From Candidatus Tayloriibacteriota bacterium (GTDB lineage Bacteria > Patescibacteriota > Minisyncoccia > Phycocordibacterales > PALSA-1337), in the NCBI GenBank assembly GCA_052034805.1, contig JBPOID010000005.1:50984-114983 (forward strand): 64,000 nucleotides of DNA, read 5' to 3'. The notes below the pieces were generated by a model. The model did not search any database, was not told the origin of the DNA, and saw nothing but the letters and a program-made list of their open reading frames with translations. Position numbers and translations under genes: made by a program. Positions 3,449 through 60,315 of the stretch are shown here, in pieces. Positions within the stretch are counted from its first letter, which is position 1; each line of letters opens with the position of its first letter.

Positions 3449-4291
3449 TTAATTAGTGAAAACTCTAAAGATTCCGGAGTCTCCACTTGAATCTACGGGA
3501 TACATGGTGATATCCCCGTAGATGAAGAATGGCTTTAAAGCCATTTCATTCCATGTTTTGAAATCGTTAGATTTCTCGACATGGATATGTGTGTATTCCC
3601 ATGGGGAATCTACAAAGAGATAGGTACCGTCCGGAATCCCATCAAGATTTTTTATGACCTTGATCTCAAGTGATGTTTTCTTTGCATAGTCCATCACTGC
3701 AAATTCCTCGAATGTATCTATGATAGTACCAACCTCAAAGGAATCAGACCCTTCACCCCAAGTAATAGAGATCGTGGGGTATCTGGTGCTACCATCATAA
3801 GCAATGAAGACATTGAATGTCTCGCTACCGATCTTAAAGCTTCCATAGCTATAAAGATTTTTCATCAACCCTTCAGGGGTCAATGAATAATCATATACGC
3901 TAGTACGATGATCTTCTGTCTTCAGAGCTGGAGAAAATTTTTCCCCAGTCAACACATCGGTAAAGACAGGTGTTGAAACTATCCCATCTAGACCTGTCGG
4001 TATGGGAGATAGTCTGAGGATTCTTCCTCCTGCAAGGGATTTCGTCTTGATAACGAAATAATCGTAATTCCCCTGCTGGGAAGATGCAGAGTTTGACCAA
4101 TCTCCCTCTGTACTAACCCAATGAAGTGGGTAGTTCTGGCTCTGAGCTATCTCCTTATAGTAAAGGATATTGGTTTTGAACGCCTCGCTTACGCGAGGGA
4201 TCCTCACCACCGGCTCAGATGCCTCCGAGAAGATCTGAAACACGAATGATAAGATAACCGACAGAATGACAATGAACTTTGTTGTTTTCAC
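3449..4291 (-). CDS. secreted hypothetical protein (signal peptide), GC-richer than the housekeeping genes
   Basis: Long ORF with an N-terminal signal-like hydrophobic segment and no motif I recognise; its composition differs from the flanking AT-rich genes. Confidence 0.5.
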   Translation of the reverse strand: MKTTKFIVILSVILSFVFQIFSEASEPVVRIPRVSEAFKTNILYYKEIAQSQNYPLHWVSTEGDWSNSASSQQGNYDYFVIKTKSLAGGRILRLSPIPTGLDGIVSTPVFTDVLTGEKFSPALKTEDHRTSVYDYSLTPEGLMKNLYSYGSFKIGSETFNVFIAYDGSTRYPTISITWGEGSDSFEVGTIIDTFEEFAVMDYAKKTSLEIKVIKNLDGIPDGTYLFVDSPWEYTHIHVEKSNDFKTWNEMALKPFFIYGDITMYPVDSSGDSGIFRVFTN

Positions 4292-4478
4292 TTTCTTTCC
4301 TCTTTCTTGTTTTTGTTGTTGTTTACTTATTCACAAAATCTACTCTATATATAGTATCATAATAAATACTATATGTCAATATGACTATGGGCACATTCAA
4401 CCTCTTGGTGCATTTACTTGCTGAACTAGCCATAATACACTAATAACTTTATATCTATTATGTATAAATTTTATTTAT

Positions 4479-4523
4479 AAAAAATTAAACCCCCAAGTCT
4501 TGCGGACTTGAGGGTAAAAGTGG
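4479..4523 (-). terminator. intrinsic terminator, copy 2 of the identical 45 bp element
   Basis: Exact repeat of 3404..3448, lying immediately 3' of the next minus-strand gene. Confidence 0.65.
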
Positions 4524-4540
4524 TTTTGTGATTGTCTCAA

Positions 4541-5203
4541 TCAATGATTGAAATACAACCACGACCATGTCGTGACCATCCATGTGAGCTCATTGCCCGT
4601 CTCACTGATGAATAGTCCGATGTTCTTCTTCGTCCAGCCATCTTGTTTGGCTGTGACTGCGATCTCTATAGCTCTCACAATAACTGTGATATGCCCAATG
4701 ACAAGAGACATTCCAGCCAACCCATCGTTTCGCCCTGCTTTGAATATGCAGTAAGCGATATAGAGTTGTGGAGTGCTCTTAACAATAATGGACATTAAGC
4801 CTCTATTGATCGGCTCGACGAAAGTTTCCATCACAGAACCTTTTGATCTTACAATCATAAGGACAGTGAGAGATGCGATAACCAGAAGTGTTACCAATGT
4901 ATCACTTTTCGTCCAGTATCCCTTTAGAGAAATAATGACGAACATAGTGGCCCATAGTAACAACCAGTTGGCATATACAAGAGTGACTTGCATAGCCTTT
5001 CGACTGCCTGAATCCCAATAAGCACTGAGAGCCAGGAAGAAATTAATTGTGACGAAGATCGAACAGAGCATAGACCATGTGATGGTCATGCCAGTCGTCG
5101 TTGTGAATGATCTGTGTATCTGCGGGATGCTGAAGCACCACGCCATAATGATCTGGAACCAGAAAAGCAGGTCCCCGATCATATTTTTGTTTTTATTAGA
5201 CAA
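4541..5203 (-). CDS. PQ-loop-repeat-like polytopic membrane protein
   Basis: About 7 TM segments; two PQ motifs (SIPQIHRSF and STPQLYIAY) in positions consistent with the two PQ-loop repeats; GC-richer composition. Confidence 0.4.
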   Translation of the reverse strand: MSNKNKNMIGDLLFWFQIIMAWCFSIPQIHRSFTTTTGMTITWSMLCSIFVTINFFLALSAYWDSGSRKAMQVTLVYANWLLLWATMFVIISLKGYWTKSDTLVTLLVIASLTVLMIVRSKGSVMETFVEPINRGLMSIIVKSTPQLYIAYCIFKAGRNDGLAGMSLVIGHITVIVRAIEIAVTAKQDGWTKKNIGLFISETGNELTWMVTTWSWLYFNH

Positions 5204-10637: not shown

Positions 10638-11903
10638 CTATGATAAAGAAATTTTATCCTTACCCATATATTTTCTCAATACTTCTGGAATAGTTATGGA
10701 ACCATCTGCATTCTGATAATTTTCTATAAGAGATACTAGAATTCTAGGAGTAGGAATAGCTGTAGAGTTTAGAGAGTGGGCATAACGAAGTTTGCCTTCA
10801 TTATCACGATAACGAATATTCAAGCGACGAGTTTGGAAATCATGAAAATATGATGCTGAGGATATTTCGCGGTATTTGTATTCTTTTGGTACCCATAATT
10901 CTATATCGTATTTCTTTACTTGACCCAATCCTAGATCTGCACCGCAGTTTATAACTGTTCTATATGGAATCATAAGTGACTCTATGAATTCTTCTGTATT
11001 TCTATTTATTTCTTCATGCAAAGCGACTGAGGCTTCATGACTGGCTTCACATAGTATCAACTGTTCAAATTTATAAAATTCATGAACACGAATAAGACCC
11101 TTTACATCTCTACTATGAGATCCAGCCTCGCGACGATAACAAGGAGAAAATCCTAAATAACGTTTAGGTAATTCTTTAATATCTAAAACTTCTTCACTAT
11201 GAAATGACATAAGTGGAACTTCTGCTGTTCCTGCTAGAACATCATTGTCTTGTGTCATATAGAAATCTTCTACATCTCCGGGCAAATGTGCTGTACCGTA
11301 TAATGCAATCTTTCTAACAATAGTCGGAGCTATAACTGGCATTAAATTCTTTTTACTGAAAAATTCTAAAGCATATTGCCAAATAGCAAAAGTTAATCTT
11401 GCTCCATCTCCAGTCAGGAAATATCCTCTGAATCCATGCACCTTGGCTCCACGTTCGAAATCAACCATTTTGAGCTTTGTCATAAGCTCTATATGATCCT
11501 TTGCTTCAAAATCAAAATTAGTTTTCTCTCCCCAAGCTTTTATTTCTTTATTGAAATCCTCATTTTCGCCTTCTGGTACAGATATATCTGGAATATTCGG
11601 CACACGCAACATCATATCCTGCCATTTCTTCATTATATCTTTCAATTTCTCTTCTTCATCTTCTAGACCAGCTTTCAAATGCTTCATGGATTCTATAAGC
11701 TTTTCGCGATCTTCTCCATTTGCTCTTATTATTTTCTGACTTGCTAGATTCTGTTCTGTTCTTTTCTTTTCTATAGAAGAAATCAATGCACGACGTTTGT
11801 CATCGAGTTCTATAAGCTCAGCAATGTCTATTTTTACATGCTTTTTCTTTGCACCTAATTCAACTATATCTTTATTTTCCCTTATGAATTTGATATCTAA
11901 CAT
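10638..11903 (-). CDS. serS: seryl-tRNA synthetase
   Basis: Canonical MLDIKFIREN start, a coiled-coil arm and class II motifs. Confidence 0.9.
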   Translation of the reverse strand: MLDIKFIRENKDIVELGAKKKHVKIDIAELIELDDKRRALISSIEKKRTEQNLASQKIIRANGEDREKLIESMKHLKAGLEDEEEKLKDIMKKWQDMMLRVPNIPDISVPEGENEDFNKEIKAWGEKTNFDFEAKDHIELMTKLKMVDFERGAKVHGFRGYFLTGDGARLTFAIWQYALEFFSKKNLMPVIAPTIVRKIALYGTAHLPGDVEDFYMTQDNDVLAGTAEVPLMSFHSEEVLDIKELPKRYLGFSPCYRREAGSHSRDVKGLIRVHEFYKFEQLILCEASHEASVALHEEINRNTEEFIESLMIPYRTVINCGADLGLGQVKKYDIELWVPKEYKYREISSASYFHDFQTRRLNIRYRDNEGKLRYAHSLNSTAIPTPRILVSLIENYQNADGSITIPEVLRKYMGKDKISLS

Positions 11904-11987: not shown

Positions 11988-12653
11988 ATGAAAGATGTGA
12001 TACCCATTGTAATCACGGTTACTGTATTCTTTCTTGCTACAGTGGTGTACTGCTCATTCTTTGAATGGAATTTGCACAAACACTGGATGCATAAACCTTG
12101 GAAAATACCTTTCACAAAATGGAAGGTAGAATATCCCTTCAAAGCACATGCTCTGACTCATCATGTGATCTTTAGAGCAGATGAAACATATCATCTCATA
12201 AAAGATGAAGACAAATGGACTATACCTATGGCCTGGTGGAATGGACCGGTGCTCGTTGCCGTATCCTCCACACCATGGATCATTCCATCTATCATAGTGC
12301 ATTCTGTATTCTCTATATCATTTTGGGTGCCTTATACGGCTTCTACCGTTACCATAGCACTCTATTATGTTATATATGAATACATTCATTGGTGCATGCA
12401 TTTGCCACAACCCAAACATCAGAGACTTTTGGAACGTTCTAGTTTGTTCAGAAAGCTGAACGGCCATCATCTCTTGCATCACTTTTGTCAGCACAAGAAT
12501 TTCAATGTGGTTTTTCCACTTGCTGATTTCTTCATGGGTACCTTGATCACGGTTTCCAAATTTCGTTTCAATCAGCCGGAAGGACCGAGCGTACCCAATG
12601 TTCAACCTGACGGAATATCATTGCCTGATAAGAAATTAGTAGGCAATACTTAA
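11988..12653 (+). CDS. fatty acid hydroxylase / sterol desaturase superfamily membrane protein
   Basis: Three His boxes (HKHWMH, HWCMH, HHLLHH) in TM-flanking positions. GC content is above the housekeeping background. Confidence 0.6.
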   Translation: MKDVIPIVITVTVFFLATVVYCSFFEWNLHKHWMHKPWKIPFTKWKVEYPFKAHALTHHVIFRADETYHLIKDEDKWTIPMAWWNGPVLVAVSSTPWIIPSIIVHSVFSISFWVPYTASTVTIALYYVIYEYIHWCMHLPQPKHQRLLERSSLFRKLNGHHLLHHFCQHKNFNVVFPLADFFMGTLITVSKFRFNQPEGPSVPNVQPDGISLPDKKLVGNT

Positions 12654-12710
12654 TTAAGCCCCCTCGAGAGAAGCCTCTCGTGGGGCTTCTTCTTATTTGG
12701 ATTATCTTTA

Positions 12711-13025
12711 TAGAGAAAATCGGTTCACTGATTATAAAATTGGACTTTATGTATAAGAAAATTGGACTTCATGTCATAGAAAATTGGACTTGGCTACTAA
12801 GAAAATCGGTTCGCCGATCTTGCGGTCGGAAGCTCTTTTTCTTTACTCCGTACACTCGCAAAGAAAAAGACTTCCTCCCCGTCGGCTCACACGATTTTCT
12901 AATACGTAATCTAGAAAATTGAGACTTGGCACGGTGCGGGAGCCTTTCCGTAACGGAAGTGGAGGAAAGGTCTCACGCACGCAAGATGCCAAGTCCAATT
13001 TTCTTAGTTTAGTTAATTTTCTTAT
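12711..13025 (+). repeat. copy 1 of a ~290 bp nested-palindromic repeat family
   Basis: Shares a >200 bp near-identical core with 58796..59090 and 60041..60315. Has terminal inverted motifs gaaaattggacttggc / gccaagtccaattttc and extra tandem aaaattggactt units at its left end. Confidence 0.85.
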
Positions 13026-13084
13026 ATATAAAAATCCACACATAAAAATATATTAAAATAAATAAAAAAACATGTAAGAAAAGT

Positions 13085-13118
13085 AAAGCAAAATAAAAAG
13101 CGGCGCAACATATGTTGC
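13085..13118 (-). terminator. intrinsic terminator on the minus strand
   Basis: Minus strand reads aagcggtgcaacatatgttgcgccgctt (12 bp stem, one G.U pair) followed by TTTTATTTT. Confidence 0.6.
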
Positions 13119-13400
13119 ACCGCTTCGGCCTAAGCCTTATGGTATCACTCGCGCATGCGAGTACGACCGCTACGGTCGCATTTGACCCGATCCTGAAGCT
13201 TCAGATGTTGTCCAGTATTCGCAGGAATGGCAAACCGGTTGAAAAAATCAATCCCCTCTCCAGCCCTACTCTCTTCCTCGTTACCCCTCCTTGCTTGACG
13301 GGCACTGTGTACTGCGATTTGTCCGCCAGTAGTCAGGACGTTCTGATCATTAACTTTACTCAGGTCTTTCGCCATAGTATTGTAGACTCCGATTTTTTAA
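13119..13400 (-). ncRNA. GC-rich (~50%) transcribed element ending at the terminator: candidate structured ncRNA, or a foreign 76 aa ORF
   Basis: Local GC far above the flanks; several local hairpins (ctgaagcttcag, cgaccgtagcggtcg, ctcgcatgcgcgag). It also carries a GGAG-preceded 76 aa ORF (13145..13375). I cannot tell from sequence alone whether it is coding or structural. Confidence 0.3.
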
Positions 13401-13510
13401 CTACCATTTTTACCAGTATATCCACAACAGATATACTACTCCAACAAAGAATAGTACAAGAACGAATAACAAATGTCAAATGAATTATCAACAAAAATAA
13501 TAAATAGAAT

Positions 13511-14398
13511 ATGTATAAAATAATAAATAAAAAAGATAAAGAATTTCCCCCATTATTACTCGAAATAAATGATACACCAGAAAGACTTTTCTATATTGGA
13601 AATATTTCTAAATTACAAGATAAAGAAATGAAAATACTCTGTATAGTAGGATCTAGGAAGTATTCTAATTATGGAAAAGAAGTTACAGAAAAATTAATTT
13701 CAGAAATCAAAGGATACAATATATGTATAGTATCTGGACTTGCTCTCGGTATAGATAGTATTGCACATAGAAGCGCTATAGATAATGGACTCTATACTAT
13801 AGCCTTCCCTGGATCAGGACTTCATAGAGAAGTTATGTATCCCACGACACATAGACAATTAGCAGATGAAATAATAGAGAAAGGAGGAGCATTATTCTCT
13901 GAATTTGAATTAAAACAAAAAGCTCAAGAATGGACTTTTCCACAGAGAAATAGACTTATGGCTGGTATATCTCATGCAACTCTTATAATAGAAGCCGGTG
14001 TGAAAAGTGGCACAATGATCACAGCCAGACGCGCTATGGAATACAATCGCGATGTAGCGATAATACCAGGTGAAATATTTGATCCATTGAGAGAGGGTCC
14101 ACATAGTCTAATGCGTGACGGTGCTGTACCTATAACATGTAGTGATGATTTATTGGAATTATTGGGTTTTAGCAGACGAGAAGGTCAAAGTAGTCTTAAT
14201 TTCAAAGATAATAATATTCTAGAAAATCTAAATGAAAATGAGAGAAAAATATTAGGAATATTACAAATAGAATCTTGTAATAAAAATACATTAATAAATA
14301 GATTAGGAATGGATACAAAAGTTGCAAATATAATTATATCTTCTATGGAATTAGAAGGACTTATAGAGGATATAGATGGGAGAATTAAAATAAAATAA
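13511..14398 (+). CDS. dprA: DNA processing protein DprA/Smf
   Basis: Rossmann-like core GSRKYSNYG...VSGLALGIDSIAHR...TIAFPGSGL and a C-terminal wHTH. Confidence 0.8.
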   Translation: MYKIINKKDKEFPPLLLEINDTPERLFYIGNISKLQDKEMKILCIVGSRKYSNYGKEVTEKLISEIKGYNICIVSGLALGIDSIAHRSAIDNGLYTIAFPGSGLHREVMYPTTHRQLADEIIEKGGALFSEFELKQKAQEWTFPQRNRLMAGISHATLIIEAGVKSGTMITARRAMEYNRDVAIIPGEIFDPLREGPHSLMRDGAVPITCSDDLLELLGFSRREGQSSLNFKDNNILENLNENERKILGILQIESCNKNTLINRLGMDTKVANIIISSMELEGLIEDIDGRIKIK

Positions 14399-58795: not shown

Positions 58796-59090
58796 TAGAA
58801 AATTGGACTTGGCATACAAGAAAATCGGTTCGCCGATCTTGCGGTCGGAAGCTCTTTTTCTTTACTCCGTACACTCGTAAAGAAAAAGACTTCCTCCCCG
58901 TCGGCTCACACGATTTTCTAGTTTACAATATTACATACTAGAAAATTGAGACTTGGCACGGTGCGCAGAACTTTCTTTTTAGTCGCTTGTCGATAAAAAG
59001 AAAGTTTACTGCGCACGCAAGTAGCCAAGTCCAATTTTCTCGTATACGAACCGATTTTCTTAGATACGGACCAATTTTCTACAGACTATG
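58796..59090 (+). repeat. copy 2 of the ~290 bp nested-palindromic repeat family (variant central hairpin)
   Basis: Shares left and right arms with copies 1 and 3. The centre is cagaactttctttttagtcgcttgtcgataaaaagaaagtttactg, itself a palindrome. Confidence 0.85.
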
Positions 59091-60030: not shown

Positions 60031-60040
60031 TTTGTTAGAA

Positions 60041-60315
60041 AATTGGTTCGCCTATTAGAAAATTGGACTTGGTATACAAGAAAATCGGCTCGCCGATCTT
60101 GCGGTCGGAAGCTCTTTTTCTTTACTCCGTACACTCGTAAAGAAAAAGACTTCCTCCCCGTCGGCTCACACAATTTTCTAGTTTGTAATATTCCATACTA
60201 GAAAATTGAGACTTAGCACGGTGCGGGAGCCTTTCCGTAACGGAAGTGGAGGAAAGGTCTCACGCACGCAAGATGCCAAGTTCAATTTTCTAATAGGCGA
60301 ACCGATTTTCTATTT
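60041..60315 (+). repeat. copy 3 of the ~290 bp nested-palindromic repeat family
   Basis: Near-identical to copy 1, including the central ggagcctttccgtaacggaagtggaggaaaggtctc hairpin. It is in the same orientation as copy 2, on the other side of trxB. Confidence 0.85.

Follow-up and report, generated by a model that had tools for sequence, protein, structure and literature searches.

The GC-rich island found between serS and dprA in the window (the whole stretch of 64,000 nt analyzed here, from a candidate-phyla-radiation (CPR) bacterium with a genome of 33% G+C) is very probably, on the comparative sequence evidence, a real small protein-coding gene that would specify 76 amino acids on the minus strand. 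Purifying selection acts on the 76-aa frame, the sole one with gene-like behavior, and the product of this frame founds a new and tiny, lineage-restricted protein family seen in a few Paceibacterota. A sequence-only reading of this DNA had offered two interpretations of the island, a structured ncRNA or a horizontally acquired mini-gene. The mini-gene part of it holds and the structured ncRNA part does not. Thus, a GC-rich intergenic island in an AT-rich CPR genome, a classic lead towards structured RNA, resolves here in all probability into a small orphan protein gene, and the outcome is a corrected public annotation together with a small new protein family with defined motifs.

The serS-dprA spacer

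The closest relatives of the DprA encoded in the window come exclusively from Paceibacterota/Parcubacteria MAGs. The island sits between two divergent housekeeping operons, the one of serS (10638-11903, minus strand) with an ftsQ-like gene, and that of dprA (13511-14398, plus strand) with topA. The head-to-head pair of serS and dprA is kept across about 70 related loci, over which the spacer between both genes usually measures only 25-100 nt in Paceibacterota, and most members of this group have no insert at the site. In the window the spacer extends over 1607 nt and contains three inserts: a gene of 221 aa of the fatty-acid-hydroxylase/sterol-desaturase family (11988-12653, plus strand), a repeated element of 250 nt (12756-13004) and the GC island with the 76-aa ORF (13375..13145, minus strand).

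The first insert codes for a membrane protein and is followed by a terminator at 12668-12691. Its homologues carry PF04116, although the sequence itself did not reach E<=1 in a Pfam scan. Its GC3 was 0.41, compared with 0.16-0.23 in housekeeping genes. Outside three CPR relatives, the nearest proteins were 50-58% identical, Verrucomicrobiales proteins among them. Such an enzyme is unusual among reduced CPR genomes, and its gene may be an old horizontal acquisition.

The 250-nt element is present in the window in three copies, all intergenic and about 90% identical (12756-13004, 58796-59040 and 60037-60291), for instance downstream of ftsZ and of a trxB-like gene. Its boundaries are formed by the inverted repeat AGAAAATTGGACTT(GGC), and the whole folds as one long nested hairpin (MFE z -7.9); in copy B the apical segment differs yet remains self-complementary. 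Its features resemble those of a MITE or a structured repeat. It is exactly at this element that public contigs of the same organism break (L103 and L104 end at 12746-12807), and the element was not present in the homologous spacer of L108, a contig of a sister Paceibacterota. Besides, the motif AGAAAAT[TC]GG occurs at least 8 times, direct and inverted, at 12692-12810 and 12890-13030, with a 22-nt spacing at 12733-12809, both within and beside the element. These repeats might form an array of protein-binding sites, or represent partial, nested copies of the 250-nt element itself. In other Paceibacterota (L006, L011, L012, L018 and L028) the serS-dprA spacer has independently acquired unrelated small ORFs of 39-253 aa, all of them on the serS strand, most with their own intrinsic terminator and several with a ribosome-binding site. 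The spacer looks like a hot spot for the gain of small genes.

Composition of the island

The presence of a GC-rich island of about 300 bp in AT-rich surroundings was confirmed. The G+C content was 0.535 at 13100-13299, against about 0.22-0.36 in the flanking AT-rich intergenic DNA, and peaked at 0.545 at 13117-13316, the maximum of all the 200-nt windows in the 64 kb. The average over these windows was 0.331 (sd 0.061) and just 0.04% of them reached 0.535. The coding sequence, stop included, is MAKDLSKVNDQNVLTTGGQIAVHSARQARRGNEEESRAGEGIDFFNRFAIPANTGQHLKLQDRVKCDRSGRTRMRE (13145..13375, minus strand), as delimited by the ORF list, the homologue P0002 and the codon alignment described below. It starts as had been read from the letters alone (MAKDLSKVNDQ...), and a Shine-Dalgarno-like GGAG (13388..13391) is indeed found 11 nt upstream of its ATG. 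The codon usage, which had been described as unlike that of the housekeeping genes, proved so as well, with a GC3 of 0.48 versus 0.16-0.23 in serS, dprA, topA, ftsZ and the ftsQ-like gene. The atypical GC3 of the small gene and of the hydroxylase gene recurs in L108. Part of the high G+C content of the island (GC1 0.61 and GC2 0.45 in the ORF) is due to the composition of the protein, rich in Arg, Gly and Ala. The remaining excess is the GC3 of 0.48, which the protein composition does not explain. This value is maintained in both lineages despite nearly saturated dS, and plain neutral evolution at 33% GC does not explain it either.

At the end of the unit there is a stem-loop with a UUUUUAUUUU tail, the arrangement expected of a putative Rho-independent terminator (13087..13126, minus strand). 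Its stem (13126..13097) has 13 pairs, 7 of them G-C, closed by the 4-nt loop AUAU and followed by the U-rich stretch TTTTTATTTT to about 13087. The minus-strand terminator noted before was therefore correct as a feature, and only its limits (13085..13118) and its stem of 12 bp were slightly off. In L108 the lower stem is retained and the upper stem has a different sequence with the pairing intact. The multiple perfect local hairpins noted in the same reading were also found, clustered at the 3' end: GCGACCG-UAG-CGGUCGU, ACUCGC-AUGC-GCGAGU and GGC-UUAG-GCC, besides the terminator.

A small gene under purifying selection

With the 76-aa product as query, exhaustive phmmer searching against 1.84 billion representative proteins gave a single match, P0002, a protein of 81 aa (E 5.9e-16) encoded on the contigs L108 and L109 of a sister Paceibacterota. 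The neighbors there are those of the window, the fatty-acid-hydroxylase gene, serS and dprA, and the small gene is again convergent with the hydroxylase homologue beside serS and divergent from dprA. Between the window and L108 the identity was 97% for SerRS, 86% for dprA, 81% for the hydroxylase homologue (222 aa) and 62% for the small protein. Start and stop codons are retained, and the indels within the coding sequence (21, 9 and 3 nt) are all in frame; indels that are not a multiple of three (1 and 2 nt) appear only upstream of the ATG.

Among 74 aligned codons, 27 were identical, 19 had only synonymous changes and 28 nonsynonymous ones. The substitutions at codon positions 1, 2 and 3 were 20, 13 and 40 (chi-square p 3e-4), with the third-position bias present in each half of the coding sequence (p 0.011 and 0.023), and the N-terminal half was poorly conserved while the C-terminal half was conserved. 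The resulting values were dN 0.31, dS 1.23 and omega 0.25, and they stem essentially from one pairwise comparison of 74 codons, in a family of two to three members and with a codon alignment built in the frame under test. As for the other five frames, three gave omega values of 0.97-2.1, a fourth 1.45 with stops, and the fifth (antisense frame 1) 0.33 but with three stops in the window; no alternative frame was both open in both genomes and constrained. The neighboring genes had dS values of 0.60-0.88 and omega values of 0.04-0.17. Since the dS of the small gene resembles that of its neighbors, it appears to have been co-inherited with them, under weaker but real purifying selection. The small protein has evolved about 12 times faster than SerRS (dN 0.31 vs 0.026). 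Protein-level conservation with a synonymous substitution pattern, the check suggested for telling a small CDS from an ncRNA, was thus found (dN/dS 0.25, third-position bias, in-frame indels), and the conserved start and stop codons give further support to the mini-gene alternative.

Other members of the family were rare. When the two small proteins were compared by tblastn with about 117 related loci, only the window itself and L108/L109 were recovered, and neither blastn nor nhmmer with the element found a match in the related loci L001-L047. A word-indexed profile search with the two-member alignment added no members, and DprA-anchored scans of genome and metagenome collections recovered the synteny and no close relative (best DprA identity 70%). 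A third locus, L118, was reached by tracing hydroxylase homologues through other CPR contigs. Here serS and the hydroxylase gene are followed by an island of 0.55-0.59 G+C whose terminator lies on the strand that diverges from dprA. It holds an ORF of 89 aa at the same position and strand, 31% identical to the family and matching the two-member profile in hhalign over the C-terminal 25 residues (P 1.7e-4). The three members (76, 81 and 89 aa) all begin with MA and their stops align to within one to two codons. They share two invariant motifs, H-x2-R-x2-RR-x-G-x-EE and N-x-G-[QH]-HL-x3-[DE]-RV-x3-R-x-G, both basic and within the conserved C-terminal half, which persist in L118 although the nucleotide sequence is no longer alignable.

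Two further loci, L001 and L114 (SerRS 87% and 75% identical), have, at this same position, a small unit of elevated G+C and its terminator, in L001 directly upstream of serS. The terminators of L118 and L001 occupy the same place as that of the window and are unrelated to it in sequence. The ORFs of these two units (52 aa in L001, 58 aa in L114) had no significant similarity to the family profile. However, L001 shares the TTGACA-N17-TAYYAT promoter and the ACTATGGC start context, and to judge from these its unit may be a diverged orthologue of the small gene; the loss of detectable similarity would be expected, because the protein evolves about 12 times faster than SerRS. In the spacer of L114 the hydroxylase gene is accompanied by a gene for a DUF5654 membrane protein of 88 aa and, apart from it, by an island (these two at 3979-4245 and 4280-4620, both minus strand). 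This island, of about 300 nt and 0.5 G+C, has its own TTGACA promoter and terminator and adjoins dprA, and its 58-aa ORF bears merely a faint likeness to the family (MxKxxSK, AHLAR). Altogether, the unit occupies the same site in at least three, perhaps four, related lineages.

Alternative readings of the island

The main rival was the other half of the original interpretation, that the island is a structured ncRNA (about 300 nt), be it a housekeeping RNA that escaped recognition or one of a new class, and that its ORF is open by chance. The idea arises because G+C-rich sequence has few stop codons, and indeed the antisense frame is likewise open, so long ORFs come easily here. It is also in line with a GC island with its own promoter and terminator in an AT-rich genome, and with the folding of the whole transcript (MFE z -3.1 in the window, minus strand, and -2.05 in L108). 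However, the z value of -3.1 is due to the terminator and the 3' hairpins and not to the coding sequence, which folded alone gave -1.44 in the window and +0.09 in its L108 homologue. A base differs in L108 in 32 of the predicted pairs of the coding sequence, and 13 of them are still canonical there; controls in which the partners were slid by 1-3 nt did equally well (12-15 of 27-36). Nothing here thus points to a conserved fold in the element's body. Rfam 15 at the gathering threshold found only tRNAs, both over the whole window and in six related loci. At E<=10 nothing better than E about 1, with scores far under threshold, was found at 12600-13520, and ARAGORN found no tmRNA in the window. 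These searches bear out the earlier remark that RNase P RNA, tmRNA, SRP RNA and T-box cores could not be matched. A T-box or attenuator leader of serS was also considered and is ruled out by the absence of an Rfam match, the intervening gene and the coding signature. With the excess of third-position substitutions, the omega of 0.25, the in-frame indels, and amino-acid motifs that outlast the nucleotide alignment in L118, we consider a structured ncRNA extremely unlikely. A milder version, in which the mRNA of the small gene would also work as RNA at its 3' end, is less improbable, although we still see it as unlikely. RNAalifold on the window and L108 predicts a nested stem-loop, AUCGGGU...ACUCG.AU around GCGACCG-UAG-CGGUCGU (13155..13191, minus strand), within the last 15 codons. 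This stem-loop could be an RNA-level element, as far as the two sequences tell; together with the small hairpin and the terminator, it could stabilise the transcript, bind a protein or give rise to a small RNA derived from the 3' end. Here 11 consecutive codons (RVKCDRSGRTR) are free of synonymous change although the overall dS is about 1.2 (p about 0.005 per stretch, by our own rough estimate), and one pair of the stem has changed on both sides, from U-A to A-U, in L108. The 13 predicted pairs of the last 46 nt of the coding sequence are all kept in L108, and a block of the 3' UTR is conserved, ACCATA-GGC[CT]TAGGCC-GAAGCGGTGC. Against this, only one of these 13 pairs varies, which amounts to almost no covariation support, the stem-loop and the 3' block are not conserved in L118, and no part of the protein is more conserved than RVKCDR.GRTR, so that protein constraint and chance may suffice. 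Conserved structure between the window and L108 is thus limited to the terminator and one 3' stem-loop.

The public annotations of this genome propose a different gene. They never call the 76-aa gene, and on three contigs of the organism they put an ORF of 123 aa on the opposite strand (13112..13483, plus), which appears in NCBI as P0001. The corresponding frame is open in L108, and in L118 the public call is similarly an antisense ORF, of 131 aa (1340-1735, plus). Nevertheless, the 123-aa product had no homologue except itself among 5.8 billion proteins. Its substitutions by codon position (40/13/20) are the mirror of those in the sense frame, with an omega of 0.97. The ORF starts within the terminator hairpin, lacks a ribosome-binding site and crosses the promoter region to end 28 nt before dprA. 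That it is the real gene seems to us barely credible. Both the 123-aa and the 131-aa calls are probably on the wrong strand, a consequence of stop-poor GC-rich sequence, which keeps antisense frames open, and therefore ORF length alone misleads. The last alternative is that the 76-aa frame, still open, belongs to a decaying remnant of foreign DNA, a gene fragment or a disused gene. The atypical GC3, the lack of a known family and an evolution faster than that of the neighbors (omega 0.25 vs 0.04-0.17) would fit this scenario, as would the adjoining hydroxylase gene, with relatives outside the clade at 50-58% identity, Verrucomicrobiales included. But omega is far under 1, start, stop, promoter and terminator have been maintained across lineages with nearly saturated synonymous sites, and the C-terminal motifs are kept in a third lineage. 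We therefore regard a remnant as very unlikely, and a real small protein gene as the best description of the island.

A horizontal origin of this small gene is a separate matter. Its composition is atypical, as expected of a horizontal island (GC3 0.48, and 0.41 in the hydroxylase gene). Nevertheless, three to four related lineages carry the unit at one fixed position, with a dS close to that of its neighbors. No donor, mobility gene or integrase, insertion scar or target duplication was found at the locus, and the phage, plasmid and viral-contig collections gave no match to the element. The small gene may still have been acquired horizontally.

Transcription unit and regulatory region

From its sequence signals, the small gene would form an independent, monocistronic transcription unit of about 320-360 nt on the minus strand. 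Transcription would start at one or two sigma-70-like promoters within the 135-nt spacer shared head-to-head with dprA. The transcript would comprise a short leader with the GGAG ribosome-binding site, the coding sequence (13375..13145) and a 50-nt 3' UTR, and would finish at the strong intrinsic terminator. The 120 nt upstream of the ATG were 86.6% identical between the window and L108, and the coding sequence 65.8%; the putative promoter region of the small gene is more conserved than its coding sequence. A consensus scan (10/12) located the candidate promoter P1 at 13451..13479, minus strand (TTGACA 13479-13474, 17 nt, TACTAT 13456-13451). Its form, TTGACA-N17-TA[CT][CT]AT, is kept in L108, L118 and L001. 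Together with the window this makes four lineages that share P1, and they share the ATGGC start as well. By sequence reading we found a second candidate, P2, at 13415..13442, minus strand (TTGGAG 13442-13437, 18 nt, TATACT 13420-13415). It appears interlocked with a promoter-like site on the plus strand directed toward dprA (TTTACC 13409, 17 nt, TATACT 13437, from the consensus scan), both being candidates by consensus matches only. In the same place, between the divergent genes, there is a palindrome, GTATATC-N7-GATATAC (13416..13436), with a TATAC(T) -10-like box in each arm. In L108 it reads ATATACC-N6-GGTATAT, with both arms altered, a T>C in one being matched by an A>G in the other. The palindrome might function as an operator or as a hairpin in the 5' UTR, or be no more than a pair of opposed -10 boxes.

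The spacer between the small gene and dprA (13400-13510 in the window) thus carries overlapping and oppositely oriented candidate promoters. With such a layout, transcription of the small gene and of the dprA unit could be mutually exclusive. The GGAG is located 9 nt upstream of the ATG in L108; it is conserved in L108 and L109 and absent in L118 and L001. Shine-Dalgarno-like motifs precede just 5 of the 40 long ORFs (>=200 aa) of the window. Many long ORFs present instead a -10-like hexamer, 6 nt and the ATG, e.g. TATGAT-TTAACC-ATG (serS) or TATAAT-ACCATT-ATG (7752), a pattern which suggests that leaderless mRNAs are widespread in this organism.

The small protein and its possible function

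The 76-aa protein is basic (pI 10.0, 10 Arg), and tryptic peptides such as FAIPANTGQHLK would be expected from it. Searches of Pfam and NCBIfam (to E<=10), PHROGs, PADLOC and PDB sequences assigned the small protein to no family and no fold. The AlphaFold model obtained with the two-sequence alignment (mean pLDDT 57.6) left the N-terminal half disordered and placed a helix at residues 40-48 and a basic beta-hairpin at residues 64-74, with a block-mean pLDDT of about 80 at the hairpin and of 65-82 across the last 36 residues or so. Foldseek with this model against the PDB gave nothing below E 3. Following the model, the variable N-terminal half is probably disordered, and the conserved C-terminal half is predicted to form a helix and a basic beta-hairpin. 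By eye, the stretch FAIPANTGQHLKLQDRVKCDRSG loosely recalls the pattern '..IP....L.L..GD.V.I...G' of the SpoVT/AbrB (MazE-like) domain, a small DNA-binding domain; the protein described here is likewise small, and it is basic, with a beta-hairpin predicted at its C-terminus. However, membership in this family (PF04014) was rejected. Pfam had no match at E<=10, even with the C-terminal half alone, no PDB profile matched, and the Foldseek score for SpoVT was poor (E 6.5, probability 0.08, on a low-confidence model).

Charge, size and the conserved basic hairpin suggest that the small protein most likely binds nucleic acid. A more specific possibility, which we put forward tentatively and think more doubtful than not, is that the protein is a small regulator of its own promoter and of that of dprA-topA. 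This is suggested by the same features together with the divergent, interlocked promoters and the conserved palindrome. Taken further, the head-to-head dprA-serS promoter region of this group of Paceibacterota might be a cradle of small and very fast-evolving, possibly de novo proteins, with the gene coding for a lineage-specific nucleic-acid-binding regulator and its promoter interlocked with that of dprA-topA, something that we find decidedly improbable. If this were true, the expression of the small protein and that of the DNA uptake and recombination operon would be coupled or mutually exclusive. The biological weight of the finding is modest, a fast-evolving basic protein placed divergently from dprA-topA, and the gene would matter more if it were shown to regulate competence or recombination genes in reduced symbiotic bacteria.

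Comparison with known systems

The T-box and other aminoacyl-tRNA synthetase leaders resemble the island in being GC-richer units of about 300 nt, co-oriented with the synthetase gene (here serS) and ended by a terminator. They differ in that no leader was matched in the window or in L001, and in that the island has a coding signature; besides, an opposite-strand gene and the 250-nt repeat lie between the unit of the window and serS. The dual-function small RNAs that also encode a peptide, such as SgrS/SgrT, RNAIII/delta-haemolysin and SR1/SR1P, are similar in architecture. Their transcripts likewise measure 300-400 nt, are delimited by a promoter and a terminator of their own, include a small ORF and form stable 3' hairpins. 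In contrast, the ORF takes up two thirds of the transcript of the island, no base-pairing seed or target is in evidence, and its structure is unconserved beyond the last 46 nt or so of the coding sequence.

A close parallel is provided by the unannotated short ORFs of long GC-rich intergenic regions uncovered by the GC-IGR approach (Stav et al., 2019; PMC6429828). Those regions, too, appeared as candidates for structured RNA, and comparative analysis showed them to hold a short ORF, complete with ribosome-binding site and terminator. In that survey of GC-rich intergenic regions in AT-rich genomes, about one third were unannotated coding genes and about one quarter had short ORFs. Since such regions commonly resolve into coding sequence (PMC6429828), the small gene described here is a useful but unsurprising outcome. 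It differs from those cases in that its 76 aa exceed the size typical of a sORF or uORF, in that it is a free-standing gene and not a leader peptide, and in that its family is so far confined to a few Paceibacterota.
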